Assembly (NCBI GenBank): GCA_963588175.1
Contig: CAVAGP010000002.1
Location: 51,515-115,514, forward strand
DNA from: Faecalibacillus sp.
GTDB taxonomy: Bacteria; Bacillota_I; Bacilli_A; RFN20; CAG-826
DNA: 64,000 nucleotides
Direction: 5' to 3'
A model generated the notes under the pieces. That model had not been told where the DNA came from. It saw nothing but the letters and a program-made list of their open reading frames with translations, and ran no database searches. Within the stretch, counting starts at the first letter, position 1; each line of letters opens with the position of its first letter. Of the stretch, positions 16,481 through 33,518 are shown piece by piece. A program made the position numbers and the translations under genes.

Positions 16481-19400
16481 TCAGAAACGAATATTATTTT
16501 TACTCATTGACGACTTACCCGTCAATGGATTAACAAGCATCGACGTAAGCCATTTCTCCACACGCTTGTCCTTCTGCATCTCATTCATAAACTCTGAATA
16601 GTTCTGGACGTTCGGCAATGTGAATTCGATGTTGATAGGGGAGGAGATGTCGATCTGGCTGACGTTGCTCTGCAAGTCGACAGGGATAGATACCTTCGGC
16701 AGTTCTGCGACAGCATCCATCAGATCAGGAGCAAATGATACGAGCTTCTCAAAGTTTTGGTTCTGCTCTGGAGTAAGCACACGCTCTCCAGCCTTCAGTG
16801 TATTGATTGTAAAATCAGTATCGCCATTACGAGACAGGATCTTCTTTGAGTTGCCTACAACGCCGCCTGAAGCAAATCCAGTAATCTCAAACGGATCTTT
16901 ATCTGTCGGTCCGTTCTTCTCTGGATTCTTATTTGTTACAGCGTATGCAATCTTATCAGCCGCTGCGTTAATATCGCTGGACAGTGTTTTGATTCCGGTG
17001 ACAGCAGCGGACACGCTCGCAGAAATAGTTCCGTATTCAGAATCCGTTCCCCAAATCTTAGTCATTGCATCAGACATAGTATAACCAACAGAATCTGTAG
17101 CCTCTTTAATTGTTGATGATACATCGGCAGAATTAGCGTCAATGCTATTGATTAAATCATCTGCATTATCTCTGAGACTATCAATGATGTCGTCGAAGTG
17201 GTCACTCAATTCGTCCTCTAAATCACTAAGCAAGTCTTGTGCTGCGCTGATATACTGATCGTACTCCGCATCGGACAAGTCTTGCTGCGCATTCATTAAG
17301 TTTTGATTTGCTTGCTGAATACGTTGTTTTGCTTCTTCAGAGTCGTCGTACTGATATGCTTGCAATTGTTTCTGATAAGTGGTGATGTCCTTTGTGATGT
17401 CCTTGATATTTTGCTGGTAATCATAAATATCTTTTTGTGCATTTAACACATCAGAATATTTAGAAATCAATTTATCAAGCGCATCGAGTTGAGCATCGTA
17501 ACCATCCTGAACAAGATCAATCAAAGATTCTTTCTCGTCTTGGGCTGCGATGATTGCATCCTGTTGCGCTTCAACAAGCTCTTGTCTGCGGTCAAGATAA
17601 TCTTTATTTAAGCTATCGTCAGCAAATTGTTCGTCTAATTCTTTAATTGCTTCTGCATAATCCTTAGCTTGCTGAGTATAAGTCTGATAATTCTGGACAT
17701 GCAAAGCCTTGACAGCCTTGCCGTATTCCGTATCATTGCCAGTGTCTTTGTCTTGCAAGTCTTTATAAGACAACAGATCAATTAGAAAATCAGTTTCACT
17801 CGTCAGGTTTGAAATACGATCTTGTAATTCGTCGAAGCGATCCCAATTTAACTGATTAATAGATTGTTGATATTCTGCAACCGCAGCTTCACCCTCAATT
17901 AATGAAACAGTTAAATCATTAATAGCATCCAGTGCATCATAGTATTCGTCACTACCAACCGTTAAGTCGGAGAGGGAAGCCTGTAATGCATTTAATTCCT
18001 GACGCATTGATTCATTCTGCGCTAATTGAGCCTTTTGTTTTGCAGTGTAATACTTTGCAGAATCGCCATAACCAAGTGCTTGATTTTTAGATTGCTGTGC
18101 ATCAATAATAGATGCTTCATTATCATATTGCTGTTGCTGACGTTCGTAGCTCTCCTGAATATTCTGAAAGGCTTGATAAGCAAGAGCTTCTTTCTCTGCT
18201 TTGAACGACGCTTCATCAATTTTTTTCTGGGCCTCTGCTTGCAGTTTAGCCTGATAATATTGATGGTATTGCAAACATGCATTGTAGAACGATCTCCAAA
18301 CATAACCTTTTGAGTTATATTCAGCGAGCTGAGAGATCATATCATCAGTAATGTCTTCTCCGGAAGCCGCACGGCGTTTGCATTCCTGTACTAATGCTTC
18401 TACTTTTTTACGAGTAGCAGCACTAGCCGAGTTAATTGCTTTACCATACGCAGTACTCTTTGCAATTTTTTTAGCAGCAGAATTTACGCCAGAAGCCATC
18501 TCTGCAATTTCAGCATCGTCGTTGCTCAACATTGTGTCATAAAGACTAGATGCTTGCTTGAGTAGTTTATTCTTTTCCTCTAAGGTTGTAGCAACATCAG
18601 CTTGAGATTCTAATAAATCAATCTGGTCATTTGCTTCGTCATCCATTGCATCATAAATGTCTTGGATGTTTGAAATAATATCAGCATTGTTTTCAGCTTT
18701 TGCAACGTCGCGAGCAAGCTTTGCTTCGTCAAGTGCTTGCCGCTCGGCGTTGTATTTAATAATTTTAGCTGCGAGTTTGTTCGCATTCTTGGCAGAAGTT
18801 TTACCAGTTGTCTTCTTAGCATAATTTTCAATTACACTTAAATCTGAACTAGACACTTCTTTGCCGGACTTAATCGCAGCTTGAGCTGATTTAACTGCCT
18901 TCTTATATTTCTTATATTCTGACTTAGATGTACCTTTATGACGCTTTGCTTTTGATTGTTGCTTTGCAGCATTCTCAGCAGAATTTTGTGCTCTACCATA
19001 ATCCTTACGAGTCTCTTCGACGCGCGTCTTATACGCATCATTCTGCTTTTCAAGATTATCGTTTGCGTAACGCAACTGAGCAGCCTTTGCCGCAGCAGTA
19101 TAATTCTGTGTAGATGTATTGATGTCATCCAGAGAGTCGATAACATCTAATTTCGCCTGCATCTGTGCTTCATGCAATTCCTCAAGAGCATCTACGTAAT
19201 CAAGTACTTTATCCTTCAGCTCTTGAATTGCATCCGCAGCATCTAAAGATTTATCGTAGAATTCCTTATAGTCTTTAATGACCTCTTGCATTCTGTCGCC
19301 GTAGGACTTAATGTTAAGAGAACCGTCTTTAACTTGCTTACGAATTGCTTTTGCTTGCTTATTGTTGATAAGACCTTTGCTTACTGCACGATTAAGTACA

Positions 19401-22400: not shown

Positions 22401-23140
22401 TTTCTCTCAAGTTCAGCATTTTGTTGCTTTAACGTTTGGAGTTCAGCCTCATCAGTCATACTAAGACGACCGTTTGCAGATAACTTTTGCAATTCTTCTA
22501 TACGAGATTGCGTAGTTGATAACTCATCATTCACAGAACTCAAATCAGATTGCGTGCTTGCATACGTAGACGCAGCGTCTTGAGCCGCCTGTTTGTTGTT
22601 GTCATACTCATGTAGTTTATCCGAAATAGCACCAATAGCAATTCCAATTGCAGCCATTGCAGCCATCTGCGGTAAGACAGAGACTAAGGTGGCTTTTAAT
22701 CCAGATAAGACAGTTCCAAAGGTGCTAAAAGATGTAGATACTTTTCCAGAAGAAACATTTTGAAATTGCTTTTCAGCTTTCGCAAGTTCCTTCGAGGCTT
22801 GGATTCGGTTTTGTCGTGCCGCATTATATTTCTCAGTAGCCTTAGCTTGTTCTTCAATGGAGGACGTAGGAGATTGAAGAATGTTACGTAAATTATTTTC
22901 GGCACTAGTCAAATCCTTGGCTGCCTTAGCGCTCTGGCTCCTTGCTCCATCAAGATTAGTCTGCGCTTTGGTTAAAGCATCTTGAACGATAAGTTGATTC
23001 TTTTGTGCATCTGTTAAAGAACTGCTTTCAACCACAACTTTCTTTTGTGAGTCTGAAAGTCCATCCAAACTTTTTCGGACGATATCAATATTTTTCTCGC
23101 CTTTGATGCTTTTTATTGCTTCTCCAGTTGTTTTTAGTGA
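16481..23140 (-). CDS. Tape measure protein, exon 4 (C-terminal 2219 codons)
   Basis: 2220-aa ORF-track ORF that begins only with an in-frame TTG, with no SD and no ATG for about 155 codons. Long coiled-coil, Ala/Lys/Gln-rich sequence with a hydrophobic segment (VLPQMAAMAAIGIAIGAI), typical of TMPs. The in-frame join to exon 3 is proposed at 30574|23140. Confidence 0.7.
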   Translation of the reverse strand, partial: SLKTTGEAIKSIKGEKNIDIVRKSLDGLSDSQKKVVVESSSLTDAQKNQLIVQDALTKAQTNLDGARSQSAKAAKDLTSAENNLRNILQSPTSSIEEQAKATEKYNAARQNRIQASKELAKAEKQFQNVSSGKVSTSFSTFGTVLSGLKATLVSVLPQMAAMAAIGIAIGAISDKLHEYDNNKQAAQDAASTYASTQSDLSSVNDELSTTQSRIEELQKLSANGRLSMTDEAELQTLKQQNAELERKKTLLEAQAKADLKDTVDENYELLTDDSKVYHNESAAISGEKITGANGGSFSGRRDVIEDLTANLKKMKLAEKDLTKLENERQKLQDKGENTDDLDKRISDQKQKLSDLKAEAATEAADIQTARDELAKGIGSTYWNDDYQKAFDAANAALLKYESDTSNATPLQKDLKTLQSFFNNGTDSRSQLQSTILDKMAESGKKASDVVAALGISLDDLGVENVENLNRYFDDLSESATKAQKKAKEVDGTLEGIAKAAESANEGADFENLGNYLKSGKDLYDKGLVGTDDFKTIAKFIDPDGKKYKRDFADNYEKLQRYFTTNDDGEYTKSGINNFVSDLASSGKEFKNTAEVADQLGISVRSVEAIMGRLGDYDITKYGSFKIKNIQSVAKAYDEASSNLDKLKTARDGIEDSDTRDALSNDIDEFEKYLDGLDGDLSKFDPEIAVKIKAELDEAQIRAERVRLKNLIDNGNDSHETLAEYISTNERDLSTMESGDHNSFKTKNGKYKSWVNDSYVNSRNVAENLSDFMGKNINTLSDDQITDIQQYKRKIQEAELAVQDSFAAAKKSGKSVAQWKKEAKKDGLFAELISLSEDADNYIKKLGGDTSKRKYSKNKRKRQNKDKDDVSDDSFEEGTKKYKAKTSKDDPSSGCRQSNKKTSETDETVKVNYEIASQELPEEEQALLDYAVQSQEDPEDQEALMNYVIEHQDDPVAMNALLSYIKANQDNPDAMNALMDYIKGSQESPSRKTTPVDYTKGNQINPDPKDTKVDYNLGLQQTPDPKNTEVNYTKGSQEAPSPMTTIVNYVKRFIGGDGTSPATGTAFSESSTKIGGPAKASGDWSVGKSGRALVNEVGPEIISRKGRWFIHNGGKPGFADLQKDDIVFNAAQTRDLLNSGKASSYGKFIGASHANGTVGGMSFASGSGEDKVLSNFQEWFGKFFDWIEIRLDRVERKIDNVITKAESAMNQQRWQRSENLYRKGISYTIGQIGRETTVQGRYKDKADSVLNRAVSKGLINNKQAKAIRKQVKDGSLNIKSYGDRMQEVIKDYKEFYDKSLDAADAIQELKDKVLDYVDALEELHEAQMQAKLDVIDSLDDINTSTQNYTAAAKAAQLRYANDNLEKQNDAYKTRVEETRKDYGRAQNSAENAAKQQSKAKRHKGTSKSEYKKYKKAVKSAQAAIKSGKEVSSSDLSVIENYAKKTTGKTSAKNANKLAAKIIKYNAERQALDEAKLARDVAKAENNADIISNIQDIYDAMDDEANDQIDLLESQADVATTLEEKNKLLKQASSLYDTMLSNDDAEIAEMASGVNSAAKKIAKSTAYGKAINSASAATRKKVEALVQECKRRAASGEDITDDMISQLAEYNSKGYVWRSFYNACLQYHQYYQAKLQAEAQKKIDEASFKAEKEALAYQAFQNIQESYERQQQQYDNEASIIDAQQSKNQALGYGDSAKYYTAKQKAQLAQNESMRQELNALQASLSDLTVGSDEYYDALDAINDLTVSLIEGEAAVAEYQQSINQLNWDRFDELQDRISNLTSETDFLIDLLSYKDLQDKDTGNDTEYGKAVKALHVQNYQTYTQQAKDYAEAIKELDEQFADDSLNKDYLDRRQELVEAQQDAIIAAQDEKESLIDLVQDGYDAQLDALDKLISKYSDVLNAQKDIYDYQQNIKDITKDITTYQKQLQAYQYDDSEEAKQRIQQANQNLMNAQQDLSDAEYDQYISAAQDLLSDLEDELSDHFDDIIDSLRDNADDLINSIDANSADVSSTIKEATDSVGYTMSDAMTKIWGTDSEYGTISASVSAAVTGIKTLSSDINAAADKIAYAVTNKNPEKNGPTDKDPFEITGFASGGVVGNSKKILSRNGDTDFTINTLKAGERVLTPEQNQNFEKLVSFAPDLMDAVAELPKVSIPVDLQSNVSQIDISSPINIEFTLPNVQNYSEFMNEMQKDKRVEKWLTSMLVNPLTGKSSMSKNNIRF

Positions 23141-23156
23141 CAAAATGTGATATATT
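23128..23156 (+). promoter_or_regulatory. Candidate promoter of zinc-ribbon gene (straddles the TMP exon 4 boundary)
   Basis: TTGTTT (23128..23133), 17 nt, TATATT (23151..23156) with an upstream TG (extended -10). Confidence 0.4.
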
Positions 23157-23176
23157 ATATAAAGGAGGAAAACAAT

Positions 23177-23662
23177 ATGAGAAAAATAATTTGCAAAGAT
23201 TGTAATGAAGAATATGACGTAAATGACAGCAAATGCAACAAATGCGGCTGTTTAACATCAGACACAAAAGAATATTATAAAATTAAGTATTCGGAGAGTT
23301 TTGAATATGTATTTGATATGTGTCCTGTCATATGCGAGTGTAATAAAAACTATAGTGACCAGAATATATACATTAGAGATGATGCGATATATACCTATTG
23401 TCCAATTTGTCAAAATGATCGCGTAATTGCACCATTAGACCTCGAAAGAGCCAAACGTTTTAACGATGTGCGAAGAAAAGGTTTTTATATGGCAGAACAA
23501 GAATCTCAAAACAAATGCGTTCCACATTGTCCAACATGCGGTTCAACCAACATAAAAAAGCTTAGTACAACCAAACGTATTACTCACGGTGCGATGTTTG
23601 GATTGTTCAGTAAAACCGCTCGTTCTCAGTGGGAATGTAAGAATTGCGGTAATAAATGGTGA
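23177..23662 (+). CDS. Multi-zinc-ribbon protein (unknown function)
   Basis: Start moved to ATG 23177 (AAAGGAGG SD). Four CxxC pairs: CKDCN...CNKCGC, CPICQ, CPTCGS...CKNCGNKW. It is the only plus-strand protein gene in the island. Confidence 0.6.
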   Translation: MRKIICKDCNEEYDVNDSKCNKCGCLTSDTKEYYKIKYSESFEYVFDMCPVICECNKNYSDQNIYIRDDAIYTYCPICQNDRVIAPLDLERAKRFNDVRRKGFYMAEQESQNKCVPHCPTCGSTNIKKLSTTKRITHGAMFGLFSKTARSQWECKNCGNKW

Positions 23663-24133
23663 GAAAAAGCGACTGTAAATACAGTCGCTTTTTATATGTA
23701 GAAATAAAAGAGTATTCAATGTTGCAATTTCAGATTTAGACATATGAACAATTTTGTTTGGATGTATCGAATTTAATGAATGGTATATCTTATATTCCAT
23801 CAAAATATTCTGTAATTTTTCCAAAGATAATTTATCTATGGTTCTTCTGTAATTTAATAATTCCTCACATAGTTCGACTGTAAAAGTATTATTAAGTTGA
23901 AGATAACTATCCTTTTGAATGACAGTTTCAATAGGATCATCTGAATAAACCACGATATTGCTCCGGAATGCAGCCTGATATTCTTTGCCTTGTAACGAAT
24001 CCATATGTGCAATTTCAATGTAATCATCATTAATCGCTACTATTAAACAAGGATGTTCTTTATCAGCAACTACACCATCATTATTAAAACGTACTCGCAA
24101 CCAAAGTACTTGTCCAATCTCTAAATCTTTCAT
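23543..24133 (-). CDS. MazF/PemK-like (SH3-barrel) toxin candidate partnered with Panacea-like gene 1
   Basis: N-terminus GQVLWLRVRFNNDGVVADKEHPCLIVAINDDYIEI resembles the MazF/PemK G.i..v.f.......K.RP.lVv block. ATGA overlap with the upstream gene. The ORF runs through the 23664..23693 terminator and 120 nt into the convergent gene. Confidence 0.4.
   Translation of the reverse strand: MKDLEIGQVLWLRVRFNNDGVVADKEHPCLIVAINDDYIEIAHMDSLQGKEYQAAFRSNIVVYSDDPIETVIQKDSYLQLNNTFTVELCEELLNYRRTIDKLSLEKLQNILMEYKIYHSLNSIHPNKIVHMSKSEIATLNTLLFLHIKSDCIYSRFFSPFITAILTFPLRTSGFTEQSKHRTVSNTFGCTKLFYVG
23664..23693. terminator. Bidirectional intrinsic terminator
   Basis: A5-AGCGACTG-taaata-CAGTCGCT-T5 (stem 23668..23675 / 23682..23689). 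Confidence 0.65.
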
Positions 24134-24624
24134 AAGTCAATTCTGTCTATAACCTTTAACATATCGGAATACTGTTCGACATATTCCTTATGATGTCCTT
24201 CGGTGTCCATTTTCTGTTCTGCTCCAGTACAATTTCGTTTCTCTTGCCAAGCAGAATCTTCATGAGAAAGTTCGATTAATTCTTCTAATGAAGCATTTTG
24301 CAGAACATAAAAAATCTTGTCTAAAAAACAACGGACAGAATTATCTGCTTCGGTAAAAGATTTTGAGTTTGAAAGCAAGGAAGAATAGTTTCGATAGACA
24401 TCGTTTACTACTGCTCCATTAGCATAAGCAAGCAAAGGGTCTGCAAATAAAAGATTACCAGTCTTAGCGTAGAAAAGGTTTTGCGAAATGTGTAAATATT
24501 TATTCAGCCTAGCATTGCCAGAATAAAAATTATGGCCATTCCGACATGTTAAATCTGTAGTGAAAATATTATGATTAGGATCTTTTGAAAGATAATACAA
24601 AGCAATATCTCTTGCAGAATACAT
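24130..24624 (-). CDS. Divergent Panacea (DUF4065/SocA-like) antitoxin-domain protein 1
   Basis: Start moved to ATG 24624 (AAAAGGAGG SD). MYSARDIALYYLSK...LNKYLHISQNLFYAKTGNLLFADPLLAYANGAVVNDVY is weakly DUF4065-like. Own promoter TTGACA (24796..24791), 17 nt, CATAAT (24773..24768). Confidence 0.45.
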   Translation of the reverse strand: MYSARDIALYYLSKDPNHNIFTTDLTCRNGHNFYSGNARLNKYLHISQNLFYAKTGNLLFADPLLAYANGAVVNDVYRNYSSLLSNSKSFTEADNSVRCFLDKIFYVLQNASLEELIELSHEDSAWQEKRNCTGAEQKMDTEGHHKEYVEQYSDMLKVIDRIDL

Positions 24625-24809
24625 AACAAAACCTCCTTTTCTATATGAAAATGGCTCCATAAAAGTAAGAATGGGGATAGTTTTCACTAGCCCCACCCGT
24701 CATCTTCACTCGGTTATTTTTTGTTTACCGACGAGTCGGAACCGTCACTCGTCATCTTCTTTACTATATTATGAAGCAAAATATGTTAAATGTCAATAGG
24801 AATTTTTTA

Positions 24810-25298
24810 TTATGTAGAATTATCTGTAGTCTGAGTCAGTTGAGATTCAATAGCAGACACATCAGGAAATATAATTTTTACGCCTTTACGATGAAGAACT
24901 AATACTCTTTGAGCTTTAGCCAATAACTTTGCTTCAGCAACTTCGTCCAAACGAACAGATTTGCCATGATTAAAATATTCATCATTAACATAATCTTCTG
25001 TTACTGGACACATATTTTGAATCAAGAATGCCTTTTTATATCCGAGAACATATGCAAAGAAAATAGTATCACAACGATGATGTCTTTTCATCTTTTGATT
25101 ATAAATTCTTTTGAATTTACTTACCTGAGAAGAAAATGGAATCATCCAATATAAGCCAGTAGTTGGATCTTGAAAGGCATAATAACAAGCTCTTCCGTGC
25201 GGCTGACCGTTTTGTTCTTCTTTGTTTTGCATCAAACAAGGATCAGAAAAAGTAGAAAAATATTGGTCTTTGAGAAAATAAAAATGTCCAGTTTTCAA
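24810..25298 (-). CDS. ToxN/AbiQ-family type III toxin (endoribonuclease) candidate
   Basis: FYFLKDQYFSTFSDPCLMQNK...GLYWMIPFSSQVSKFKRIY...AFLIQNMCPV resembles ToxN/AbiQ blocks. Preferred start is TTG 25298 (GAGG SD 7 nt upstream); an alternative ATG lies at 25328. Preceded by tandem RNA-type repeats. Confidence 0.65.
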   Translation of the reverse strand: MKTGHFYFLKDQYFSTFSDPCLMQNKEEQNGQPHGRACYYAFQDPTTGLYWMIPFSSQVSKFKRIYNQKMKRHHRCDTIFFAYVLGYKKAFLIQNMCPVTEDYVNDEYFNHGKSVRLDEVAEAKLLAKAQRVLVLHRKGVKIIFPDVSAIESQLTQTTDNST

Positions 25299-25347
25299 AA
25301 TAAATACCTCATATGAAAATAGCTCCATTCGATAAAGAACGGAGCTA

Positions 25348-25450
25348 CAAGATTTGAACTCGACCTTCTTTGAGTTGCGTATCGAGAAGCAACAGACATT
25401 TGGACTCGACCTTCTTTGAGTTGCGTATCGAGAAGCAACAGACATTTGAA
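25348..25450 (-). ncRNA. ToxI/antiQ-like repeat RNA (type III antitoxin candidate): 2 full 46-nt repeats plus a partial one
   Basis: Units at 25359..25404 and 25405..25450 (ctcgaccttctttgagttgcgtatcgagaagcaacagacatttg[g/a]a), plus a partial copy at 25348..25358. Directly upstream of the ToxN-like ORF on the same strand. Confidence 0.65.
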
Positions 25451-25467
25451 ATCTTTTCTGTATCAAT

Positions 25468-25496
25468 AGTATATGCTATATCTTCAGAAAAATCAA
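25468..25496 (-). promoter_or_regulatory. Promoter of the type III module
   Basis: TTGATT (25496..25491), 17 nt, TATACT (25473..25468). Confidence 0.5.
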
Positions 25497-25539
25497 TATT
25501 CTATGGGTAAAAATTGAACATTTTTATTATGTAAGTTAT

Positions 25540-26427
25540 TTATTTGCCATCATCAATACTGGAGATATTTCCTGATCCATTAGCAACTTCGTCTACAAGC
25601 CGATATTGATGATTGCCAATATTAATTTTTTCTGGAAAAGACATTTTCGAAACACCAAGAGAGATAATTGTAATCACAGCCACAAAAGCTAAAACTCCTA
25701 TACTGGCTATAATTTTAGCATTCCACTTTCTCTTCCCATTTTTGTCTCGAATAACTTTGTCGTTAATTTCTCTCAAAAAATCTATTAGGATCGACACCAA
25801 AAGGACAAAAACTAATCCAATTACGATAGCAATAACCACGAGATCTAATGTTTTGGCTTTGCCAAGATTGTTTAAGACAGAAGTCGAAAAGGTAAATGCT
25901 CCTACAAAAGCTAACATAATAGAAGCAAAGATTCCCAAGATTGTGATATACTCCTTTTCTACGCCCTTAATCTCATTATGAAGGTCTACTTTCGCATCTA
26001 CAATTCGCTGTGCAAAAATGTCATTCATATTTTCGATTTGGTAATTGACCAATTGCGTATGGTCGTATATTTTTGTAACTATTTTTACAACATCATCATT
26101 AATACTATCTTCTTTGCTCAGAGAATAAATAAGCAGATTCTCAACATTTGTAAGAAAGATAGCTCTTTTGTCCGGCTCTAAATTAAACAAATAATTACTA
26201 ATTTCAGAATATGGAATCCTAGCTATTTTATCTTTTGTATTCACATAGAGATCAATCTGCTTAATTGTTTTCTCTGGACGATATTTTTTCGTTTCGATTG
26301 TTAGACAGTAGCAAATACTATTTATCCTTCGTTTGGTTGTATTATACTTCTTAGAATCAGTACTAAGAAATTCGTCAGAAGAATCATCTACTTGTTGAAG
26401 TGAATCAAGAGGATTTGTGTCAAGCAT
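25540..26427 (-). CDS. Membrane protein, toxin/effector candidate partnered with Panacea gene 2
   Basis: 295 aa. A soluble N-terminal ~165 aa is followed by three hydrophobic helices (ILGIFASIMLAFVGAFTF, LVVIAIVIGLVFVLLVSILI, IIASIGVLAFVAVITIISL). 8-nt overlap with the upstream antitoxin-like gene. Confidence 0.5.
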   Translation of the reverse strand: MLDTNPLDSLQQVDDSSDEFLSTDSKKYNTTKRRINSICYCLTIETKKYRPEKTIKQIDLYVNTKDKIARIPYSEISNYLFNLEPDKRAIFLTNVENLLIYSLSKEDSINDDVVKIVTKIYDHTQLVNYQIENMNDIFAQRIVDAKVDLHNEIKGVEKEYITILGIFASIMLAFVGAFTFSTSVLNNLGKAKTLDLVVIAIVIGLVFVLLVSILIDFLREINDKVIRDKNGKRKWNAKIIASIGVLAFVAVITIISLGVSKMSFPEKINIGNHQYRLVDEVANGSGNISSIDDGK

Positions 26428-26899
26428 GGAAATACTCCTTTATAGCTTTGGGTGAGATCTCAGTGTTCTTCCCTTGCTGATAAGCATTCTTCCACGGAGC
26501 TTGGCGATGAGTAATAGCTACTAAATCAGTTGCAGAGTAATCAGAAAATTTATCGACGACTGCTTCAATCATATGTTTATCCGTTTTTGTGATAACGTCA
26601 TCATCGTATTCCAGTATCCTTGAATTCCAAATATTATCCTCATCAACATCCACGATAAACGAAGTGGTTGGAATATCTCCACTCCCGAATTGCTTATACC
26701 TTTTATATGCTTCTGGAACAACTGGACCAAAATCCCATGCTATAATTTTTTCTTTAAAACATTGCTTATCGGCGACAATCAAGAAGTACGCCTGAACGAA
26801 ATATAACATTTTCTGAAGTTTTAAGTTAGAAATACCATAGTCTTTTTTATTGCTGTAATCAATTATATATTTACAAACATCTAATACATCATAGCTCAT
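26420..26899 (-). CDS. Panacea (DUF4065/SocA-like) antitoxin-domain protein 2
   Basis: VLDVCKYIIDYS...ISNLKLQKMLYFVQAYFLI...EKIIAWDFGPVVPEAYKRYKQFG...HRQAPWKNAY. Own promoter TTGACA (27018..27013), 17 nt, TATACT (26995..26990). The 5' UTR ends TTTTCATATAGAAGAGGAGGT, nearly identical to that of gene 1. Confidence 0.7.
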   Translation of the reverse strand: MSYDVLDVCKYIIDYSNKKDYGISNLKLQKMLYFVQAYFLIVADKQCFKEKIIAWDFGPVVPEAYKRYKQFGSGDIPTTSFIVDVDEDNIWNSRILEYDDDVITKTDKHMIEAVVDKFSDYSATDLVAITHRQAPWKNAYQQGKNTEISPKAIKEYFHA

Positions 26900-27033
26900 C
26901 TACTACACCTCCTCTTCTATATGAAAATAACCACACCGTAAGATGTGGTTATTAATACGATTTTGGTAGGCTTCGTAACCTCTATTAACAGTATATGCTA
27001 GAATAATATAAATGTCAATATAATTATATTATC

Positions 27034-27486
27034 TTAATCATTTTGAGCTTCTTCATATTTTTTGGCATAGTAGTTTCTCATTGTTTTGCATGAGATAGGA
27101 TCTGTACATACTTCCCACGCATAAGCTTGATGACGCGCTTCTTTCCACGGGTGTTCTGAACAAGCGAGCCACTCAAGTTGATCTCCGGTGAATTCTCCAT
27201 ATGTGTTATATACTGCATTTAAAACATATAACGTGTCATCTGAAAATAATGAGTAATCACAATTCTCTTTAGGTATTTCTTTCCATCCATATTTGGAGAA
27301 TTGCCGATAGAGGGAAGGAACTACAGGGCCATGAACCCACGCCTGAATTTCATCCTCAAACAACCGATCTCCAGCAAACAGAGCACAACTCCACGCCTGA
27401 GCATAATAACAAAGTTTTTGAAGTTTTTTATGCGTCATTGAATCTTTACTCAAGAACCATTTGGCAATATCAGCAACGGCATACAT
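27034..27486 (-). CDS. Panacea (DUF4065/SocA-like) antitoxin-domain protein 3
   Basis: VADIAKWFLSKDSMTHKKLQKLCYYAQAWSCALF...DEIQAWVHGPVVPSLYRQF...SEHPWKEAR. SD TAAGGAG; starts 12 nt after the stop of the 148-aa ORF. Confidence 0.75.
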   Translation of the reverse strand: MYAVADIAKWFLSKDSMTHKKLQKLCYYAQAWSCALFAGDRLFEDEIQAWVHGPVVPSLYRQFSKYGWKEIPKENCDYSLFSDDTLYVLNAVYNTYGEFTGDQLEWLACSEHPWKEARHQAYAWEVCTDPISCKTMRNYYAKKYEEAQND

Positions 27487-27498
27487 AATAGAATCTCC

Positions 27499-27945
27499 TT
27501 AATGATTGTAAGCAGAATAATCGAAATCAAAAGCGATTACATGCATAAGATTAGGTTGATATATATCGTCTTTACATATAATACGATATTTCTGCTGTCC
27601 AAAACGAAACACAGTAAGTTTTGTTTCATCCGTAACTAAGTTCTTTTGAATGCAAATAGACTGGATTTTATTTGACATTTGTTTTAGGGGAATTTTTTCT
27701 AACCCAGCAGTTTTGCCTCGATCTCTTGCTTCGGTTACTGTTATCTGAGATAATTCATATAGTCTTTTGTGTAAATGTTCATATGCCTTGCATTTATCAG
27801 AAGTGCTTTTCCGGAAATATTCAAAGCCATGAGAGGAGTCGAAACTCATATAAGAGAATCCAAAACAGATGTTTAGGGGAGACTGACCTAAATTGCCAGA
27901 GGATAGTTTCGGCACAATCCTTCGTTTGTCTTTAGCTTTCATCAT
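27499..27945 (-). CDS. Toxin candidate (possible RelE/ParE-like fold) flanked by two Panacea genes
   Basis: 148 aa. The C-terminal part LTVFRFGQQKYRIICKDDIYQPNLMHVIAFDFDYSAYNH resembles the RelE-superfamily ...yRiiy......v..i...H..Y pattern (weak). Overlaps the stop of Panacea gene 4 by 14 nt. Confidence 0.35.
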   Translation of the reverse strand: MMKAKDKRRIVPKLSSGNLGQSPLNICFGFSYMSFDSSHGFEYFRKSTSDKCKAYEHLHKRLYELSQITVTEARDRGKTAGLEKIPLKQMSNKIQSICIQKNLVTDETKLTVFRFGQQKYRIICKDDIYQPNLMHVIAFDFDYSAYNH

Positions 27946-28402
27946 CTACATAATTTTCCCTGAAGTATTTTTTCATAGTGTCTCGGCTAATAATCTGGTT
28001 CAGGCGCTTACCATGATTGGTAGCTTCTATCCAAGGAGATTCTTCATGAGTCCGGTTCCTTAATGCCCATGCAGAATATTGCCCAAACACATCAAATACT
28101 TGTGTCAAGAATATTGAATCATCCTTAGAAAATTTTCGAGCATCTTGAATATCTTCGTCTGTCAATTGTAAATTATACGGATCAGAATAAGCATAGTAAA
28201 CTTCTTTGACAACAGGACCATGTTCCCAAGCTAAGATATCTTCATTGAATAAAGATTTGTTCTTAATAGCCAAATAAGAACCTTCGGCGTAATATAATAA
28301 TTTCAAAAGTTTGAGAAGTGACAACGGTTCTCCACCAAGATCGTCTTGTGCTTGTTGGTTATGATATATAAACCAATGAGCAACATCAATCGCACGATAC
28401 AT
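27932..28402 (-). CDS. Panacea (DUF4065/SocA-like) antitoxin-domain protein 4
   Basis: AIDVAHWFIYHNQ...LSLLKLLKLLYYAEGSYLAI...EDILAWEHGPVVKEVYYAY...HEESPWIEAT. GAAGAGGAGG SD. Confidence 0.75.
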   Translation of the reverse strand: MYRAIDVAHWFIYHNQQAQDDLGGEPLSLLKLLKLLYYAEGSYLAIKNKSLFNEDILAWEHGPVVKEVYYAYSDPYNLQLTDEDIQDARKFSKDDSIFLTQVFDVFGQYSAWALRNRTHEESPWIEATNHGKRLNQIISRDTMKKYFRENYVDDES

Positions 28403-28465
28403 AACAAGACCTCCTCTTCCTTATATGTTATTATATTATGAATCAGATCATCAAAAACATCAAGA

Positions 28466-28497
28466 CAAAATATAAAAATAGCGGGGAAATCCCCCGC
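28466..28497 (-). terminator. Intrinsic terminator (minus strand)
   Basis: GCGGGGG-auuu-CCCCGC followed by UAUUUUUAUAUUUUG on the minus strand. Confidence 0.6.
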
Positions 28498-28531
28498 CGT
28501 TCGGTGGACTAGGGTCTTACGACCAGCCCAA

Positions 28532-28714
28532 TCAGTTCGAACTGTTATCTTGCTTGCGAAATGCAAATAATTCTAATTTAGCTCGCGCCTTCTCCAAAGA
28601 AGGGGAGTGTGGTTGATAGTTCTGAAAAGAACTATTATCAAGAATTGATTTCAGACTCTCGAAAGAAGCGGAGTCTTTTATATAGAATTCTTTTGTGATA
28701 GAAGATGTTGCCAT
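28532..28714 (-). CDS. 60-aa protein downstream of Panacea gene 5 (partner of unknown nature)
   Basis: CGAGGTG SD 5 nt upstream of the ATG, 12 nt after the stop of the upstream gene. Hydrophilic; no motif recognised. Confidence 0.45.
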   Translation of the reverse strand: MATSSITKEFYIKDSASFESLKSILDNSSFQNYQPHSPSLEKARAKLELFAFRKQDNSSN

Positions 28715-28726
28715 GAAAACACCTCG

Positions 28727-29167
28727 TTATTCTTCCGATAATCCTCCATAATACATTGCCATGCTTTCTTGTGTAATAATATTATCTGAACCAACACCCA
28801 TAGGCAATCCTTTTCGAGCTTCATTCCAAGGCGCTTCCATATGGGTAAGCTGACTTAGCCATTGGGCATTATGACAAGCGTAATGGTCTAACACAATATC
28901 TATAGTCTCTTTCTGAGAATCTGACAAAACAGATATATCTCCCGGTTCGTCGTTCTCAGTTACTGCAAATATTCCTTGCGTCTCAAAGAACAACTCTCGA
29001 CACACAGGACCATTTGCCCAAGCATGAAATTCCTCTGGGAACAATGGCTCGTCATCCCATACAAGAGACCATGCTTGACAATAATAACAAAGTTTTTGCA
29101 ACTTCATTGTAGAAAGCTTTCCTTGTTTGTGTAGAATGTATTTTGCTACATCAAATATACTTGCCAT
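28727..29167 (-). CDS. Panacea (DUF4065/SocA-like) antitoxin-domain protein 5
   Basis: IFDVAKYILHKQGKLSTMKLQKLCYYCQAWSLVW...EEFHAWANGPVCRELF...THMEAPWNEAR. Confidence 0.75.
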   Translation of the reverse strand: MASIFDVAKYILHKQGKLSTMKLQKLCYYCQAWSLVWDDEPLFPEEFHAWANGPVCRELFFETQGIFAVTENDEPGDISVLSDSQKETIDIVLDHYACHNAQWLSQLTHMEAPWNEARKGLPMGVGSDNIITQESMAMYYGGLSEE

Positions 29168-29602
29168 ATGCTCCCCGTCCTATCGGTTGATATTATATTC
29201 TGCTTTACAGAAATAATAAAATGCGTGTTACAATGCTGGCTGTCAGCCCAGACGTTAATGACGCCTGTAATCAAATCATCGTATATCCTCGATGCAGGCT
29301 GCGTGTCCTTTCGAACACAGATATGTGCGTGGTACTTATCCTCCCCAGCCGGAGCACAGCTTTAACGTGTCGCCACACGGAGAACGTTTCGATCTCTTGA
29401 ATACTGAGAAGGAGACTAGCACAATACAGTGCCATAGTCTCCTTCTACGATTGACTTTGCCGTTATCAGGAAACCCCTCCAGATCCCACATCTGGAGGCA
29501 TTGGCAGGCATTGTCGTCGCTTACTGACTATGCTCAACGCGGAGCATCCCTGATTTTACACGTCAGCGTCGTGGATTTTCCTTTAGAATTTAATTTAAGC
29601 TC

Positions 29603-29631
29603 TTGACAAGGAAAATCCAATCTGTTATTAT
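29603..29631 (+). promoter_or_regulatory. Promoter of type I toxin-like mRNA, copy B
   Basis: TTGACA (29603..29608), 17 nt, TATTAT (29626..29631). Predicted +1 at G29638. Confidence 0.6.
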
Positions 29632-29772
29632 CGAAGAGTGGAAGCCACCGACCCGACTTGGATTGGGGGGGTGGAACGGTTCCGAAGACGGTTGCCTGTC
29701 ATCTCGCAAAGCGCGGAATGGAGGCTTGCATATAGCTCTTTGTGGGAAATATTTCCGAAGGAGGACGAACAC

Positions 29773-29871
29773 ATGATTACTACCCTGAGTATCACCGGAA
29801 ACATTTCCAGCATTCTCGGTTTCGCATTCGCGATCTTCGTGTTTACATACCAGATAAAGAAAAAGAAGTGA
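29773..29871 (+). CDS. 32-aa hydrophobic peptide with Lys4 tail (type I toxin candidate, copy B)
   Basis: AAGGAGG SD (29759..29765), 7 nt, then ATG. MITTLSITGNISSILGFAFAIFVFTYQIKKKK has a single TM-like helix and a cationic C-terminus. Confidence 0.55.
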   Translation: MITTLSITGNISSILGFAFAIFVFTYQIKKKK

Positions 29872-29972
29872 ACTGTCCGCCACAATAGACAGCTTCACAG
29901 GATTTATGAAGTTACCAGCTTTATAAATCAAAAATAAAAATCACAAATCTGTAGCAACCGTCTGGTTTCCAC
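29855..29972 (-). ncRNA. Antisense RNA (type I antitoxin candidate), copy B
   Basis: Promoter TTGACT (30007..30002), 17 nt, TATAAT (29984..29979), +1 about G29972. Hairpin GUGAA(G)CUGUC...GACAGUUCAC (29898..29868) followed by UUCUUUUUCUUUAU. Overlaps the toxin stop and KKKK codons. Confidence 0.55.
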
Positions 29973-30060
29973 ACTTTTATTATAAACTTCTTATTAACAA
30001 AAGTCAATATGTCCCCACACTTTGAAACAAAAAGTTTTTATAAAAGATTGAATTTATTTG

Positions 30061-30090
30061 TTGACTTTGACGATAAACACCATGTATAAT
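30061..30090 (+). promoter_or_regulatory. Promoter of small plus-strand RNA
   Basis: TTGACT (30061..30066), 18 nt, TATAAT (30085..30090). Confidence 0.5.
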
Positions 30091-30096
30091 ATACAC

Positions 30097-30178
30097 AGAT
30101 GGTAAGTATCACTTACAATCGACAAAACTCTAACGAGAGTGGTTGTGCTGCATTCAGTATGACCACTCTTATTTTATT
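30097..30178 (+). ncRNA. Candidate ~80-nt sRNA antisense to the 3' periphery of the TMP intron core
   Basis: Downstream of the promoter lie hairpin GUAAGU-auc-ACUUAC and terminator AGAGUGGU (30136..30143) / ACCACUCU (30162..30169), followed by UAUUUUAUU. No ORF with an SD. Confidence 0.45.
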
Positions 30179-30276
30179 CCCATTTGCGGCAGGGAAGAGC
30201 CGAATCACATTTTAGAACAAACATTATTAGCTGCACATCTAAGGCGTATGCAACTAAGAGGGTGGGTGCTCGTTGG

Positions 30277-30573
30277 GGATGAATACCATTTAAAAAGCTT
30301 ACCTCATATTATTGAGATGTGCTTTACCTAAACGTTTGGTATCCGTCCTGCTGATTGCAGTCAATGCATCATATCTTTTTAAACCATGCCATATATCATT
30401 ACTGATTCTGTTTTGGCATATAATACTCTTGCTTCCCAGCATTTACCCCTCTAGGTATTTTAAATCATCAAGAACCCCTATGTTAATATTACTTGTTCAC
30501 AACACCATTTTTATTGTGTTCTTGTAATAAAGTAGACTCGCTATACAACCCTATGTCTTTTGGGTCAATCAAA
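30277..30573 (-). ncRNA. Group I intron catalytic core (TMP intron 3)
   Basis: - P1: exon UCAUCAAGAAU (30584..30574) with guide GUUCUUGAUGA (30476..30466), 11 bp including U.G.
- P3: UACCUA/UAGGUA (30457..30452, 30330..30325).
- P/Q boxes: AAUGCUGGGAAG / GCAAUCAGCAGG (30443..30432, 30358..30347).
- P7: GGAUACC/GGUAUUC (30344..30338, 30287..30281).
- P8: AUCUCA/UGAGGU (30318..30313, 30306..30301).
- P9 hairpin lies just outside this span at 30257..30227. Confidence 0.7.
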
Positions 30574-31179
30574 ATTCTTGATGAATGCAGCAATACCGCT
30601 GCCAACAGCTATGGTTCCTAAAGAACCCATTGCACTAGTTATCTGATTAATGACTTGTAAGAATTCATTTGCACCAGAAACAGCACCTTTTAGAAAATCT
30701 GAATCTGCTAAGTTAGAAGAAGTCTCTTGGAACGTAGCCTTTAACTGACCAAGACGTCCTTGAATAGACTCCATATAACGAGCATTTTCTTGCTCGGCAC
30801 TACCTGCGGATTCGTACTCCGCTGTCTGATATGCTTCTTTAATCATATCAACATTATTCAGAGCAGCAGCAAGTGCGTTTGCTTGGTTCTTACCAGCGAG
30901 AGTTTCAAGTAATGCAGCCTGATCTATGTCAGACAGACTATCCCAAACCTCGCCGATACCGACGATAATATCATACATATTTTTAAATGTTTTACCGTCG
31001 GATTCCATAATGTCAAAGCCTGTCATGCTTTGCACAATGTTTTGTAATTTAGACGAGCTTGTGACTACATTATCTGTGTCTTCGCCCATTGTCTCAAGTT
31101 CAGTAGATGCACCACGGATACGAGCAGATACTGTTTTCCACATATTGCCTGTACGTGCTGCATCCTGTACGACAGCATT
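30574..31179 (-). CDS. Tape measure protein, exon 3
   Basis: Begins NAVVQDAARTGNMWKTVSARIRGASTELE and ends with the hydrophobic segment ...SLGTIAVGSGIAAFIKN. 606 nt, in phase with exons 2 and 4. The ORF-track ORF 30565..31143 is its 3' part. Confidence 0.8.
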
Positions 31180-31611
31180 CTATTGTATTCAATAAGGTCG
31201 TAAATCTTATTATGTATTATTTACATCATTATGTTTCCATAATGTATAGGTCATCTTTTCACCTGCGCCATTATGCGATCAGGGTACACTCTTTCCATTT
31301 AAGGGGTTTTCACCCACGCCATATACGATTGCGCCGTACTCCTATTGACTAATATAGTCCCGACACGGGGATGACCGTCGAACCTCTACTCTTACCGCAA
31401 AGCAGTAAGGCTTGGCTGCTGATTGCCAATTGCATAAATCTTTAGCACCCGAAGGCTTTTTTTCAGCATAGATTCATCTCAATATTTTTTTCTGCTTTCG
31501 CAACATTCACGTTTGTCTTTTCGACTGCGTTGTAGTATATTGAGCTTTATGGGTTCCCAGCAATTAAGTGTATTCTTAGGCACATATTTCTATATACCGA
31601 ACCTCTATCGA
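31180..31611 (-). ncRNA. Group I intron (TMP intron 2, 432 nt, no ORF)
   Basis: 5' splice site GGAACU|UCGAUAGA. Guide GGUUC pairs with exon GAACU (U.G at the site). P box AAUUGCUGGGAA, Q box GGCAAUCAGCAGCC. P7 is GGUCAU/AUGACC. Ends ...CAAUAG| with a terminal G. Confidence 0.8.
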
Positions 31612-31729
31612 AGTTCCTGTTGTTAATGCTATAGCTTGAGATAAGTCAGTGTTTGCTACTTTAAAACTAGCAGAACTACGTTGCAGAGCCTCGCCGATAT
31701 CATCAGACGATATTGCGAAATTATTAGAT
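31612..31729 (-). CDS. Tape measure protein, exon 2 (118 nt)
   Basis: Encodes (V)SNNFAISSDDIGEALQRSSASFKVANTDLSQAIALTTGT, the missing middle of the TP901-type TMP core. Too short for the ORF track. Confidence 0.8.
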
Positions 31730-32016
31730 CAATTGTTACTTTTCAAATTGAAAAGGCTAGGTCATTTCTGCCTAGCTCTCACGTTTTATATTTTTGATTA
31801 TTGCGTGAGGTCGGACTGTATATTCATCCTATAAGAGCAGGAGGATAACTTCAGTAAAATGTATTACTACATTAAACCCGGCAGTCTCTACGGATTCTAT
31901 AATTTTAAATCATAGTCTTTCCTCGGTCTGAACCATCTCTGGCCTTTAACCGATATAGTTATCGTCAACTCTAAAAAGAGAAGCATATGTGTTGCCACAT
32001 ATGGAGGCATCTGTTT
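31730..32016 (-). ncRNA. Group I intron (TMP intron 1, 287 nt, no ORF)
   Basis: 5' splice site AAUGAGGU|AAACAGAU. Guide GCCUC pairs with exon GAGGU (U.G). Q/R-like AAUCCGUAGAGACUGCC and S-like AUAUACAGUCCGA (P7 is GACUG/CAGUC). Ends ...AACAAUUG|. Confidence 0.8.
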
Positions 32017-33518
32017 ACCTCATTGAATTTGTCTACAACGGATTCTGCTTGATCTGCTTGTAATCCAAAACCTTGCAAGGTAGATGTCAAGCTGCTAGTA
32101 GCAGTATCAATATCAATATTGTCGCCAACGTTCTGATACAACGCAGCAACTTTAGCTAATTTGGTTGAATCCTCTAATCCGTATCCTTGACGTACCCAGT
32201 CGGAAGCGGAACGAATTACATCACTAACGGTATTGCCAGTTTGTTGAGCAATACTGCCTGCATCTGTAATGACCTTCTTATAGTCATCCGCACTGCCTGA
32301 CGATACTTTCTTCAGTTCAGTGAGGGCAGAGTCCAAATCAACTACATTGCTTACAATTGATTTAACGCCTTGTAACATATACTGAAAACTCATTGAGGTC
32401 ATCATATATGTTCCAAGAGTTTTAAATTTAGAAGTCAACTTACCAAAGACACTATTCGATGCCACGCCAGCTTCAAGAGCTTGCGTCTTGAACTGCGTGA
32501 ATTCGCCATTTAATTTATTGATCTCACTAATCTGTTCATCCGTATAAGTTCCTGTGGTTTTATACGCTGATACCAAACCTTCGACCTGTTGTCGAAGAGC
32601 TGAAGCATTACCAAAATCTTTAGCTTTCTTATTCGAGTTAAAGAAGTTTGCCATCTTGTTTTGCAGATTGATAATGCGATTGTAGGCGGCTTCTACTTCT
32701 TTTGCATTTTTGACAGCAGAGCCATCAACCAATAAACCATTGTTAGAAAAACTTTGTTTTAACGAATTGTGCTTTGCATTAAAATCCTTTAAAGAATCTT
32801 CGGTTAAATATGAACTATTTCGTAATTCATTAAACCTGCTATACTGCGCATCAAACTGTCTCTTTAATTCAGAATTATCGCTGAATAAGTTGTTTTTCTG
32901 TAAGACAGTTTGCAATTTAGCATACTGGCCTTCGTAGTCTTTTAAAATGTTGCTTCTATTCGATACTGCATTTGTTTTGTCTTTGGATAAAAAGGCGATA
33001 TCCTTACCGTTTCTTTTTGTTAGTGAGTACTGAAAATCCTGAGCAGCTTGTGCTCCCTCTTTAAAGGAGACAACCATATCTTTGCCCATTTGTTTATATG
33101 TAACACTAACATTCTTTCCAAGAGTAGTCGCGTTCTTTTCAATGGCGCTCCACTCTTTTTTTATGCCGTCAAAACTACCAGAAGCATAGGGAATATCAAA
33201 GCCTTTAAATGCTTGCTTCAATCCTTTGTTCTGGCTCTTAACCATTTTGGAAAAATTCTTTAAATCATTTGTAGATTTTTTGGTATCTACTTTTACATCA
33301 AGAGGCTTCTTTTCAACCGAGCCTTTTGCTACGTTTAAATTTTGGAGAGAAGAGGCAAGCCTCTTAATTTCATCGGCGGCAGTTCCATCAACGCCAACTT
33401 TGATTTTCCATTCTTTGCCGGTAATCTGTTTTTCTAATGAAGCTATGACTTCTTGGGCCGCAGACGCATCGGCAGTTACATTAACTTTAAGATCTGCACT
33501 TACAGATGTATTAGGCAT
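32017..33518 (-). CDS. Tape measure protein, exon 1
   Basis: GAGGTGGAG SD. Ends ...TLQGFGLQADQAESVVDKFNEV, the start of the conserved TP901-type TMP core. The ORF-track tail NRCLHMWQHICFSF is intron read-through. Confidence 0.8.

Follow-up and report, generated by a model that had tools for sequence, protein, structure and literature searches.

What kind of element occupies positions 29603..30007 of a 64,000-nucleotide stretch of Faecalibacillus sp. DNA (assembly GCA_963588175.1, contig CAVAGP010000002.1; the whole stretch is called the window below)? A first-pass annotation, made from the letters alone, had read there a type I toxin-antitoxin-like locus, in which the mRNA for a 32-residue hydrophobic peptide folds back on itself, 5' end to 3' end, and faces a convergent antisense RNA. 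We compared this locus, termed copy B, with a second copy in the window and with homologues from bacterial and viral collections, and the conserved signals indicate that it is probably a type I toxin-antitoxin-like pair belonging to a new family of gut Clostridia and phages. While the family is new, its kind is known, and no Rfam, Pfam or NCBIfam model matches it.

Every annotated sequence feature of copy B was recovered at its position, among them the sense promoter, the Shine-Dalgarno (SD) sequence and the 32-codon open reading frame (ORF). The sense promoter matches at 11 of 12 positions, and G29638, the inferred 5' end of the mRNA, lies 7 nt past the sense -10. On the opposite strand, the antisense promoter also matches at 11 of 12 positions. 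Its -10 lies in the complement of the U-rich tract at 29973..29984, and the predicted +1, 29972, is 7 nt past it and falls exactly on the last base of the closure. A terminator-like hairpin on the minus strand (29894..29871), followed by CACUUCUUUU / CACTTCTTTT, overlaps the stop codon of the ORF, and its U-tract is the complement of the lysine codons at 29857..29868. These signals would give an RNA of 113-118 nt, in agreement with the ~118 nt proposed, and it would be perfectly complementary to a stretch of mRNA that takes in the 3' end, the stop codon and the final lysine codons.

Both of the complementarities on which the fold-back had been based are present. The segment GUGGAAGCCA (29638..29647) is complementary to UGGUUUCCAC (29963..29972), and GACGGUUGC (29687..29695) is complementary to GCAACCGUC (29954..29962). 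The 341-nt RNA has a minimum free energy (MFE) of -108.5 kcal/mol (z = -4.1), both helices are formed in the MFE fold, and 0/100 shuffles were as good. The annotated U-tract follows the 3' element, and the local 3' hairpin is weak (-4.4 kcal/mol, and -8.1 kcal/mol in the second copy). The long-range closure gains approximately -19 to -20 kcal/mol, and it is plausible that transcription terminates at the local hairpin and that the RNA then refolds into the closure.

The second copy, copy A, was found at approximately 15983..16417 when the copy B locus was searched against the window by blastn, and a leader nhmmer profile confirmed that the window holds exactly two copies. The leaders are 78% identical over ~100 nt and the 3' elements 88% identical over 42 nt, whereas no similarity was detectable by blastn between the ORF regions. 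Copy A has the same overall fold as copy B (whole-RNA MFE -120.7 kcal/mol, z = -6.2), and its closure, GUAGAAACCA/UGGUUUCUAC, carries a compensatory change relative to copy B. Since the reading frame through the leader is not the same in copy A as in copy B, the leader is conserved as nucleic acid rather than as protein; a coding leader was rejected on these grounds, and because insertions and deletions within the family break the frame. The architecture of the locus, repeated in copy A and in more than 140 homologous loci, exceeds chance.

Homologues were gathered by scanning species-representative genomes and IMG/VR with a pattern derived from three sequences, GACGGTTGCN{17,20}GGAATGGAGG. 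The scan returned 79 loci in the genome set, approximately 55 of which carry the exact 3' partner GCAACCGTC 238-268 nt downstream and 7 more a single-base variant of it; the remaining matches are chance occurrences in unrelated phyla. There are at least 62 relatives in genomes of Oscillospirales and other Clostridia, almost all of them Clostridia of gut samples, the carriers including Oscillospiraceae, Butyricicoccus, Monoglobus, Faecousia, Hominicoprocola, Pseudoflavonifractor, Ruminococcus and one Lachnospiraceae isolate. In IMG/VR, where an earlier leader pattern had found a single true homologue (L017), 80 loci were returned and all 79 new ones were confirmed by the leader nhmmer profile, so that the two collections together hold at least 140 loci. 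On several bacterial contigs (L034, L062 and L068) two module copies lie within a few kb of each other, in tandem or inverted; paired copies on one contig are typical of multi-copy type I loci.

Other searches returned little. The INPHARED phages gave no match, either by blastn of the locus or by megablast of the surrounding 24 kb. Scanning IMG/VR with the 16-mer GCAACCGTCTGGTTTC gave 13 matches, all of them chance hits within unrelated coding sequence, and scans of the same collection with TCTCGCANNNNGCGGAATGGAGGC and GACGGTTGCNNNNNATCTCGCA gave zero or chance matches only. A peptide look-up had no record of the exact peptide, a homologous-protein search with the 77-residue extended ORF gave no candidate, and a related-locus search with the C-terminus of the 2220-residue protein gave nothing; matches of the neighbouring proteins were confined to a single Logan contig of 3.1 kb, which is identical to the window. 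Rfam has no family for the locus at gathering threshold, nor at E values up to 5 over 28800..30800, both window peptides gave only sub-threshold noise in Pfam and NCBIfam (E up to 1 or 10), and a description of the family was not found in the literature searched.

Both promoters recur throughout the family. The sense promoter scores 12/12 in 37 of 53 members and at least 11/12 in 47, and the antisense promoter 12/12 in 32 of 53 and at least 11/12 in 48, while shuffled flanks mostly score 7-9/12. The distance from the sense -10 to the G of GUGGAA is mostly 6-7 nt (9 nt in five members, 8 or 11 nt in two). From the antisense -10 to the end of the closure there are 6-7 nt in 30 members; most of the others carry an inserted GC-rich terminator hairpin and have a distance of 33-61 nt (13 nt in one).

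The copy B mRNA was aligned with 53 homologues (family alignment A3), and a common series of helices could be named. P1 is the closure helix, formed between the first and the last 10-11 nt of the mRNA, and is accompanied by P1b, in which GACGGUUGCC pairs with GGCAACCGUC at the mRNA 3' end. P2 is a hairpin of variable sequence in which pairing is kept (CACCGUC/GACGGUG, ACCGACC/GGUCGGG, GCCGC/GCGGC), and P3 is a small hairpin with a four-base loop between CAU-CCGC and GCGG-AUG. In the long hairpin P4, the outer stem (GUGUGUAU with AUACAUAU, stronger in the consensus of the family than in copy B) covers the start codon and the middle stem (CCCUC or CUCUU with GGGAGG) covers the SD. With an SD unpaired probability of ~0.2 in 54 members, the structure of the mRNA is predicted to limit its own translation. 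P5 consists of GUGAGCCGUCUG, a loop and CAGACGGCUCAC, with the UGA stop codon within its 5' arm, and is separated by a variable hairpin, P6, from the 3' element; this is followed by ACUUUUAUUAUA and, 17 nt on, by TGTCAA, the antisense promoter. On the antisense strand, P5 is followed by UUCUUUUU, the complement of the terminal AAR lysine codons. Since the U-tract of the antisense RNA is thus the complement of these codons, the lysine tail and the antisense terminator constrain each other. Many members, other than the window copies, also have a short sense-strand U-run after P5 (columns ~389-400 of the alignment, GGCUCAC..UUUUGAG), so P5 is possibly a sense terminator too; it may stop a fraction of the sense transcripts there, and such short mRNAs would be devoid of the closure.

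Table 1. Positions of the features of copies A and B and of neighbouring genes in the window.
Feature	Position	Strand	Remarks
Copy B sense promoter, TTGACA-17-TATTAT	29603..29631	+	11/12 match, TG extension
Copy B peptide mRNA, ~335 nt + U-tract	29638..29984	+	5' end inferred from promoter
Copy B closure helix, 5' strand GUGGAAGCCA	29638..29647	+	
Copy B second closure helix, 5' strand GACGGUUGCC	29687..29696	+	
Conserved P3 hairpin, CAU-(C)CGC, loop, GCGG-AUG	29700..29720	+	
P4 hairpin region	29726..29778	+	predicted to sequester SD and start codon
Copy B SD, AAGGAGG	29758..29764	+	
Copy B start codon, ATG	29773..29775	+	8 nt past SD
Copy B ORF, 32 codons, MITTLSITGNISSILGFAFAIFVFTYQIKKKK + stop	29773..29871	+	
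Copy B P5 hairpin over stop codon	29871..29895		minus strand, predicted antisense terminator
Copy B 3' element, GCAACCGUC-UGGUUUCCAC	29954..29972	+	3' strands of both closure helices
U-rich tract after 3' element, ACUUUUAUUAUA	29973..29984	+	putative sense transcript end
Copy B antisense promoter, TTGACT-17-TATAAT	29979..30007	-	11/12
Copy B predicted antisense RNA, ~115 nt (113-118)	29858..29972	-	from promoter and terminator signals
Half-site TTAACAAAAGTC overlapping antisense -35	29994..30005	+	exact half-site of 4199..4614 palindromic array
Copy A sense promoter, TTGACT-17-TAGAAT	15983..16011	+	
Copy A peptide mRNA	16019..16394	+	
Copy A closure, GUAGAAACCA with UGGUUUCUAC	16019..16028 with 16373..16382	+	
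Copy A second helix, GACGGUUGC with GCAACCGUC	16077..16085 with 16364..16372	+	
Copy A ORF, 39 codons, (M)NILNILFVTVIMNLDKICNVIMFVLYMHDRYHAKKNKE	16163..16282	+	AUA at SD-spaced start position
Copy A predicted antisense RNA	16268..16382	-	terminator hairpin over stop codon, 16279..16309
Copy A antisense promoter, TTGACT-17-TATAAT	16389..16417	-	11/12
Five SocA/Panacea antitoxin-domain genes	24130..24696, 26420..26899, 27034..27486, 27932..28402, 28727..29167	-	

Is the fold-back itself conserved? RNAalifold applied to the full MAFFT alignment missed the outermost helix because of insertions and deletions, and an end-anchored count was therefore used. Among 54 distinct sequences, closure positions 1-9 are paired in 44-52 and position 10 in 37, and the pairs vary in type: AU 27, GU 7, GC 5, UG 3 and CG 2 at position 7, CG 35, UG 13 and UA 2 at position 8, and CG 26 and AU 8 at position 10. 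The mean closure helix length is 7.80, compared with 6.64 (maximum 7.20) when 3' partners were swapped between family sequences 200 times. All 7 of the variant 3' partners, which differ by single-base changes, remain wobble-compatible. In the named structure overall, pairing extends to 93.7% of cells and drops to 39-53% once the partners are slid; double changes are few (9 pairs, 21 cells). The complementarity of the 5' and 3' ends is thus conserved, with some compensatory and G-U changes, and the pairing patterns across the family argue that the fold-back is real.

The same data bear on whether the unit is a DNA-level structure. It occurs at many unrelated genomic sites, with several copies per genome, and its ends are inverted repeats, as would suit the terminal repeats of a small non-autonomous mobile element; alternatively it might be a non-coding structured RNA with an incidental ORF. 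We regard these explanations as very improbable. The frequent G-U pairs, by which the complementarity is often kept, are mismatches in DNA and so argue for pairing at the RNA level and not for an inverted repeat at the DNA level. Moreover, the repeats do not include the conserved promoters, which are external to them, and the partner of the second helix is internal. The frame, length class and dN/dS (ratio of nonsynonymous to synonymous substitution rates) of ~0.2 of the ORF indicate translation, and no Rfam family matches. Terminal repeats of the miniature inverted-repeat transposable element type were rejected on account of the G-U pairs and the external promoters.

The first-pass annotation had likened the fold-back to the fbi element of hok. 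The likeness extends to the pairing of the mRNA ends; the translational lock that goes with it in hok is not supported by the folding. In silico over the 54 members, the mean unpaired probability of the SD is 0.19 in the full-length mRNA, 0.20 when the 3' 115 nt are masked to mimic bound antisense RNA, 0.19 when the last 22 nt are deleted and 0.20 in the nascent leader. The SD is held locally by P4. Since opening the closure leaves predicted SD exposure unchanged, the analogy with the hok translational lock is unsupported, and this reading was not adopted. By analogy, the closure more probably serves stability by protecting the mRNA ends, and it would double as the target of the antisense RNA.

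The ORF has the features of a translated gene. In 53 of 54 members nothing interrupts the frame between the SD-spaced codon and the conserved stop; the exception is L031, in which CGA replaces the stop codon. The ORF spans 27-39 codons, with lengths clustering at 28-32. The encoded peptides fall into several unrelated-looking subfamilies (for example MTLQDVFWIVSIAWILYQAWEKFNGKKK, MTSTILTVLGALGSIASIVSLVLYLYDKKK and, for the copy B subfamily, MNTLTLIGSICSIAGVILTIVLYINSNKKK), all with a hydrophobic core and a basic tail; the top Kyte-Doolittle 19-residue window of the copy B peptide is 1.81. Mean pairwise dN/dS values of 0.20, 0.21 and 0.25 in three subfamilies indicate that the ORF is under purifying selection while its sequence diversifies.

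The start codons of the family are mostly non-canonical. With the start placed at the codon that follows GGAGG by 6-10 nt, ATT occurs in 25 of the 54 genome members, ATA in 10, ATC in 5, ACG in 3, ATG in 7, TTG in 3 and GTG in 1, and the 21 unique IMG/VR members have ATA in 10, ATT in 10 and ATC in 1, with no canonical start at the SD-spaced position in any of the 21. Approximately 80% of members start with AUU, AUA or AUC. Close relatives interchange ATT and ATG at one aligned codon, in four genome members the whole open frame is devoid of canonical start codons, and the window itself holds an ATG (copy B) and an ATA (copy A). With AUU, AUA or AUC as the usual start, basal translation is expected to be very low; IF3 normally rejects such starts.

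Such weak starts would also suit a low-abundance regulatory peptide, and this raises the question of whether the peptide is toxic at all. With the same anatomy, the product might be a harmless small membrane protein whose level a cis-antisense RNA adjusts; it could, for instance, modulate a membrane complex, serve in superinfection exclusion or act like a holin or antiholin. The subfamilies are very different, one of them being amphipathic and not strongly hydrophobic, toxicity is ascribed by analogy, and the recurrent place of the module beside phage tape-measure genes (below) could hint at a phage-specific role. Against this, strong constitutive promoters combined with three layers of repression, namely sequestration of the SD and start codon, a near-cognate start and a full-length 3' antisense RNA, are typical of genes with a harmful product. 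The bacterial copies are scattered without a partner gene, as is typical of selfish or addictive modules, and a hydrophobic helix with a lysine-rich tail matches proven toxins (PMC6563280). A benign peptide therefore seems to us unlikely, though it is the most serious of the competing explanations.

The genomic surroundings differ between the bacterial and the viral copies. Bacterial copies are flanked by unrelated housekeeping genes, and no recurrent neighbour or protein partner was found among 146 flanking proteins. The absence of a recurrent partner gene suggests that the unit is self-contained, and the adjacent Panacea genes of the window were rejected as protein partners on the same evidence. 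On viral contigs the commonest neighbour of the module is the tail tape-measure protein. In approximately 17 viral loci the module lies 430-500 nt past the end of a tape-measure N-fragment homologous to that of the window, on the opposite strand, and the C-fragment follows after another 2.3-4.3 kb; copy B is placed in exactly this way. The lineage with the split giant tape-measure gene in IMG/VR always has the module at the N-fragment (L127 10185..10534, L142 9874..10223, L101, L119, L133 and others), and the island behind the module varies over the same 2.3-4.3 kb. In approximately 10 loci of a second phage lineage (L107/L170 type) the module precedes the tape-measure gene by 0.9-1.1 kb and has the same orientation. 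The module is absent beside N-fragments that are more distantly related (37-40% identity), so that an exact empty site is not definable.

The constant position in the first of these lineages would be expected if the module were a transcriptional cassette, with convergent promoters and a bidirectional terminator insulating the phage late operon at the tape-measure split and an ORF of secondary importance; P5 and its U-tract would stop read-through on the late-gene strand as well. The ~60 chromosomal copies in unrelated, non-phage contexts do not fit such a role, nor does the second lineage, where the module is upstream of the tape-measure gene and co-oriented with it, and an insulator does not need an ORF under purifying selection. 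We therefore consider this explanation improbable.

Within the window, a 7.4-kb accessory island (23144..30564) lies between the N-part of the tape-measure protein and a 2220-residue tape-measure-like ORF (16481..23143); copy B is at the edge of the island, and copy A is just past the stop of that ORF. The island, which could be an anti-defence island, contains the Panacea genes of Table 1, and between two of these there is a DUF3800-XI RNA motif (Rfam RF02975, 62.9 bits, 28483..28530, minus strand). The placing of copy B inside an intervening sequence of the tape-measure gene was not upheld, since it lies in the accessory island and the intron-like element is separate (31227..31622, minus strand). 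This element, a match to the group I intron model RF00028 of Rfam (31.4 bits, E = 6e-6 in a 1-kb search, covering the full-length model and below the gathering score), is within the gap 31144..31970 between the tape-measure ORFs 31971..33518 and 30565..31143, which together carry one PhageMin_Tail/TP901-type core; 50-90 nt of the gap are conserved in related viral contigs. A RAGATH-18 RNA motif (Rfam RF03064, 66.6 bits) was also found at 55126..55198 on the minus strand.

Two further features adjoin copy B. The annotated half-copy of a repeat in the antisense -35 region is an exact half-site, and TTAACAAAAGTC at this position is the sole match in the window outside the 4199..4614 array. That array consists of seven palindromic sites, ACTTTTGTTAA-N4-TTAACAAAAGT, spaced by 56-69 bp and flanked by ORF 2990..4003 and an Amidase_2 endolysin gene (4673..5536); they resemble operators or a centromere, and the window also holds a weak ParB_N-like gene at 561..1589. 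A third strong promoter-like site (TTGACT-18-TATAAT, 11/12) lies within 30061..30175 on the plus strand and is followed after ~45 nt by a 16-bp terminator-like hairpin and U-tract, predicting an RNA of ~80 nt; this putative RNA has no Rfam match, and its DNA is not conserved in the related viral loci.

How might the pair work? From the conserved signals, a strong sigma-A-type promoter would make an mRNA of ~335 nt starting with GUGGAA, and a convergent, equally strong promoter would make an antisense RNA of ~115 nt that starts opposite the last paired base of the mRNA and ends at the hairpin over the stop codon, its U-tract complementing the terminal lysine codons. The first 10-11 nt of the mRNA and the segment ~50 nt downstream (GACGGUUGC) would pair with the last ~20 nt and close the molecule, the long leader hairpin would bury the SD and the start codon, and the ORF would give a single-helix membrane peptide of 27-39 residues with a polybasic tail. 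The steps concerning closure, leader hairpin and ORF were derived in silico, with partial covariation; those that follow are drawn from analogy with txpA/RatA, bsrG/SR4 and fst. End-to-end closure would protect the mRNA ends and make the mRNA long-lived. Pairing of the antisense RNA with the 3' 115 nt would open the closure and create a substrate for RNase III, leading to decay, so that the peptide would not be made as long as both promoters fire. Were the supply of antisense RNA to fall, because the element is lost or silenced or transcription is shut off, the stable mRNA would be translated, and the peptide would then damage or depolarise the membrane, with stabilisation of the prophage or abortion of the infection as the outcome.

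A bolder version would make the module a mechanistically distinct type I system, in which near-cognate gating, competition for the 3' element and a role tied to the tape-measure gene and its island operate jointly. The peptide would then be made only upon a collapse of initiation fidelity or of antisense supply, for instance during phage takeover or stress, and the 3' element would serve first as a terminator hairpin and then refold into the end-to-end closure. Since the 5' ends of the mRNA and the antisense RNA both resemble GUGGAA..CAGACGGUUGC, they would compete for the same 3' element. The module also marks the split of the giant tape-measure gene and the accumulation of a Panacea island in one lineage, which suggests a role in lysogen defence or in keeping the island. 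As a joint proposition we find this version doubtful.

For the toxin-antitoxin-like pair as such, two convergent transcription units, a closed mRNA, a buried SD and start codon, a translated membrane peptide with a weak start, and an antisense RNA complementary to the last 115 nt of the mRNA, the closure strand included, are shown or strongly implied by conservation. The family-wide promoters, the purifying selection on the ORF, the sequestration of the SD and the hairpin at the stop codon all support the type I reading of the first-pass annotation. Several points weigh on the other side. Both RNAs are predicted from sequence signals and toxicity from analogy; the large subfamily TLQD...FW... 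is only moderately hydrophobic (best window 1.19), and the near-cognate starts could mean that very little peptide is ever made. Masking the region bound by the antisense RNA leaves SD exposure unchanged in silico, so control of translation by the antisense RNA is unsupported and the decay step is by analogy only. Covariation outside the closure is modest because the family members are closely related. The homologues were gathered by an exact leader pattern and mostly filtered on the exact 3' partner, and the invariance of GACGGUUGC/GCAACCGUC and of GGAAUGGAGG is partly built in by this procedure.

The locus defines a large, undescribed family whose RNA architecture is clear and whose carriers are abundant gut Oscillospirales and their phages. 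Cultured strains are among them (Hominicoprocola fusiformis CLA-AA-H188, Faecousia intestinalis CLA-AA-H192, Pseudoflavonifractor sp. MSJ-30 and Lachnospiraceae bacterium MD329), which makes the family directly accessible to experiment. At one codon it provides AUU, AUA, AUC, AUG, GUG and UUG starts, a natural series which, together with mRNA ends paired across the antisense target, should be useful for studying toxin mRNAs that are silent yet stable. The module could also be put to use as a compact cassette for counter-selection or containment in gut anaerobes with few genetic tools, and the near-universal non-AUG starts, the doubling of the closure as antisense target and the recurrent tape-measure context are of specialist interest.

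Among known systems, the pair had first been compared with txpA/RatA and bsrG/SR4 of B. subtilis; TxpA/RatA, BsrE-G-H and YonT are Gram-positive type I families with 3'-overlapping antisense RNAs (PMC8594479). The comparison holds for the layout, with convergent promoters and an antisense RNA of ~100-120 nt over the mRNA 3' end and the end of the ORF (PMC8594479, PMC6563280), a small single-helix membrane peptide with a basic C-terminus, an SD held in an intramolecular helix and a prophage location. It does not extend to homology, since neither RNA nor peptide has sequence or covariance-model similarity to these systems. In contrast to them, the extreme 5' end of the mRNA here pairs with the segment covered by the antisense RNA, most starts are AUU, AUA or AUC, and the U-tract of the antisense terminator is encoded by the lysine tail.

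With hok/sok of plasmid R1 the family shares the pairing of the 5' end of the full-length mRNA with its 3' end into a compact molecule. Sok, however, binds the 5' leader (mok region), whereas the antisense RNA here lies at the 3' end, and the fold-back of hok blocks both translation and antisense binding until the 3' end is trimmed, whereas here the closure makes no difference to the predicted SD exposure and a strand of the closure is itself the target of the antisense RNA. The hosts are Gram-positive, and the peptides gave no HOK_GEF match in Pfam or NCBIfam. In fst RNA I of the E. faecalis par locus, one helix sequesters the extreme 5' end and stabilises the message while a separate stem-loop sequesters the SD (PMC7472228), and by analogy the 5' upstream helix of fst RNA I appears to be a closer functional counterpart of the closure than hok fbi. 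The par locus (fst RNA I/RNA II) also has convergent promoters, sequestration of SD and 5' end, and a peptide of ~30 residues with a charged tail. Its antitoxin, in contrast, acts at 5' direct repeats and a shared bidirectional terminator, whereas the antisense RNA here, from the way the overlap is built, is complementary to the mRNA 3' region only; the peptides gave no Fst-family match in Pfam or NCBIfam, and no search for DRa/DRb-type repeats was made.

Similar in host and setting are the prophage systems of C. difficile (CD2517.1-RCd8, CD0977.1-RCd11 and relatives), which are clostridial, phage-borne and made of convergent overlapping genes. The toxins of B. subtilis and C. difficile prophages are small, with a transmembrane helix and a charged or lysine-rich C-terminus (PMC6563280), and those of C. 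difficile, compared here by composition and not by sequence, likewise have a hydrophobic N-terminus and a lysine-rich C-terminus (PMC6563280). They are 34-59 residues long, against 27-39 codons here, and no family model matched the peptides of the present family; for the C. difficile systems the review PMC6563280 describes neither non-AUG starts nor a conserved architecture of leader and closure. Homology searches had turned up hardly any type I toxins in Clostridia other than C. difficile (PMC6563280), and it is among these bacteria and their phages that the family described here is distributed.

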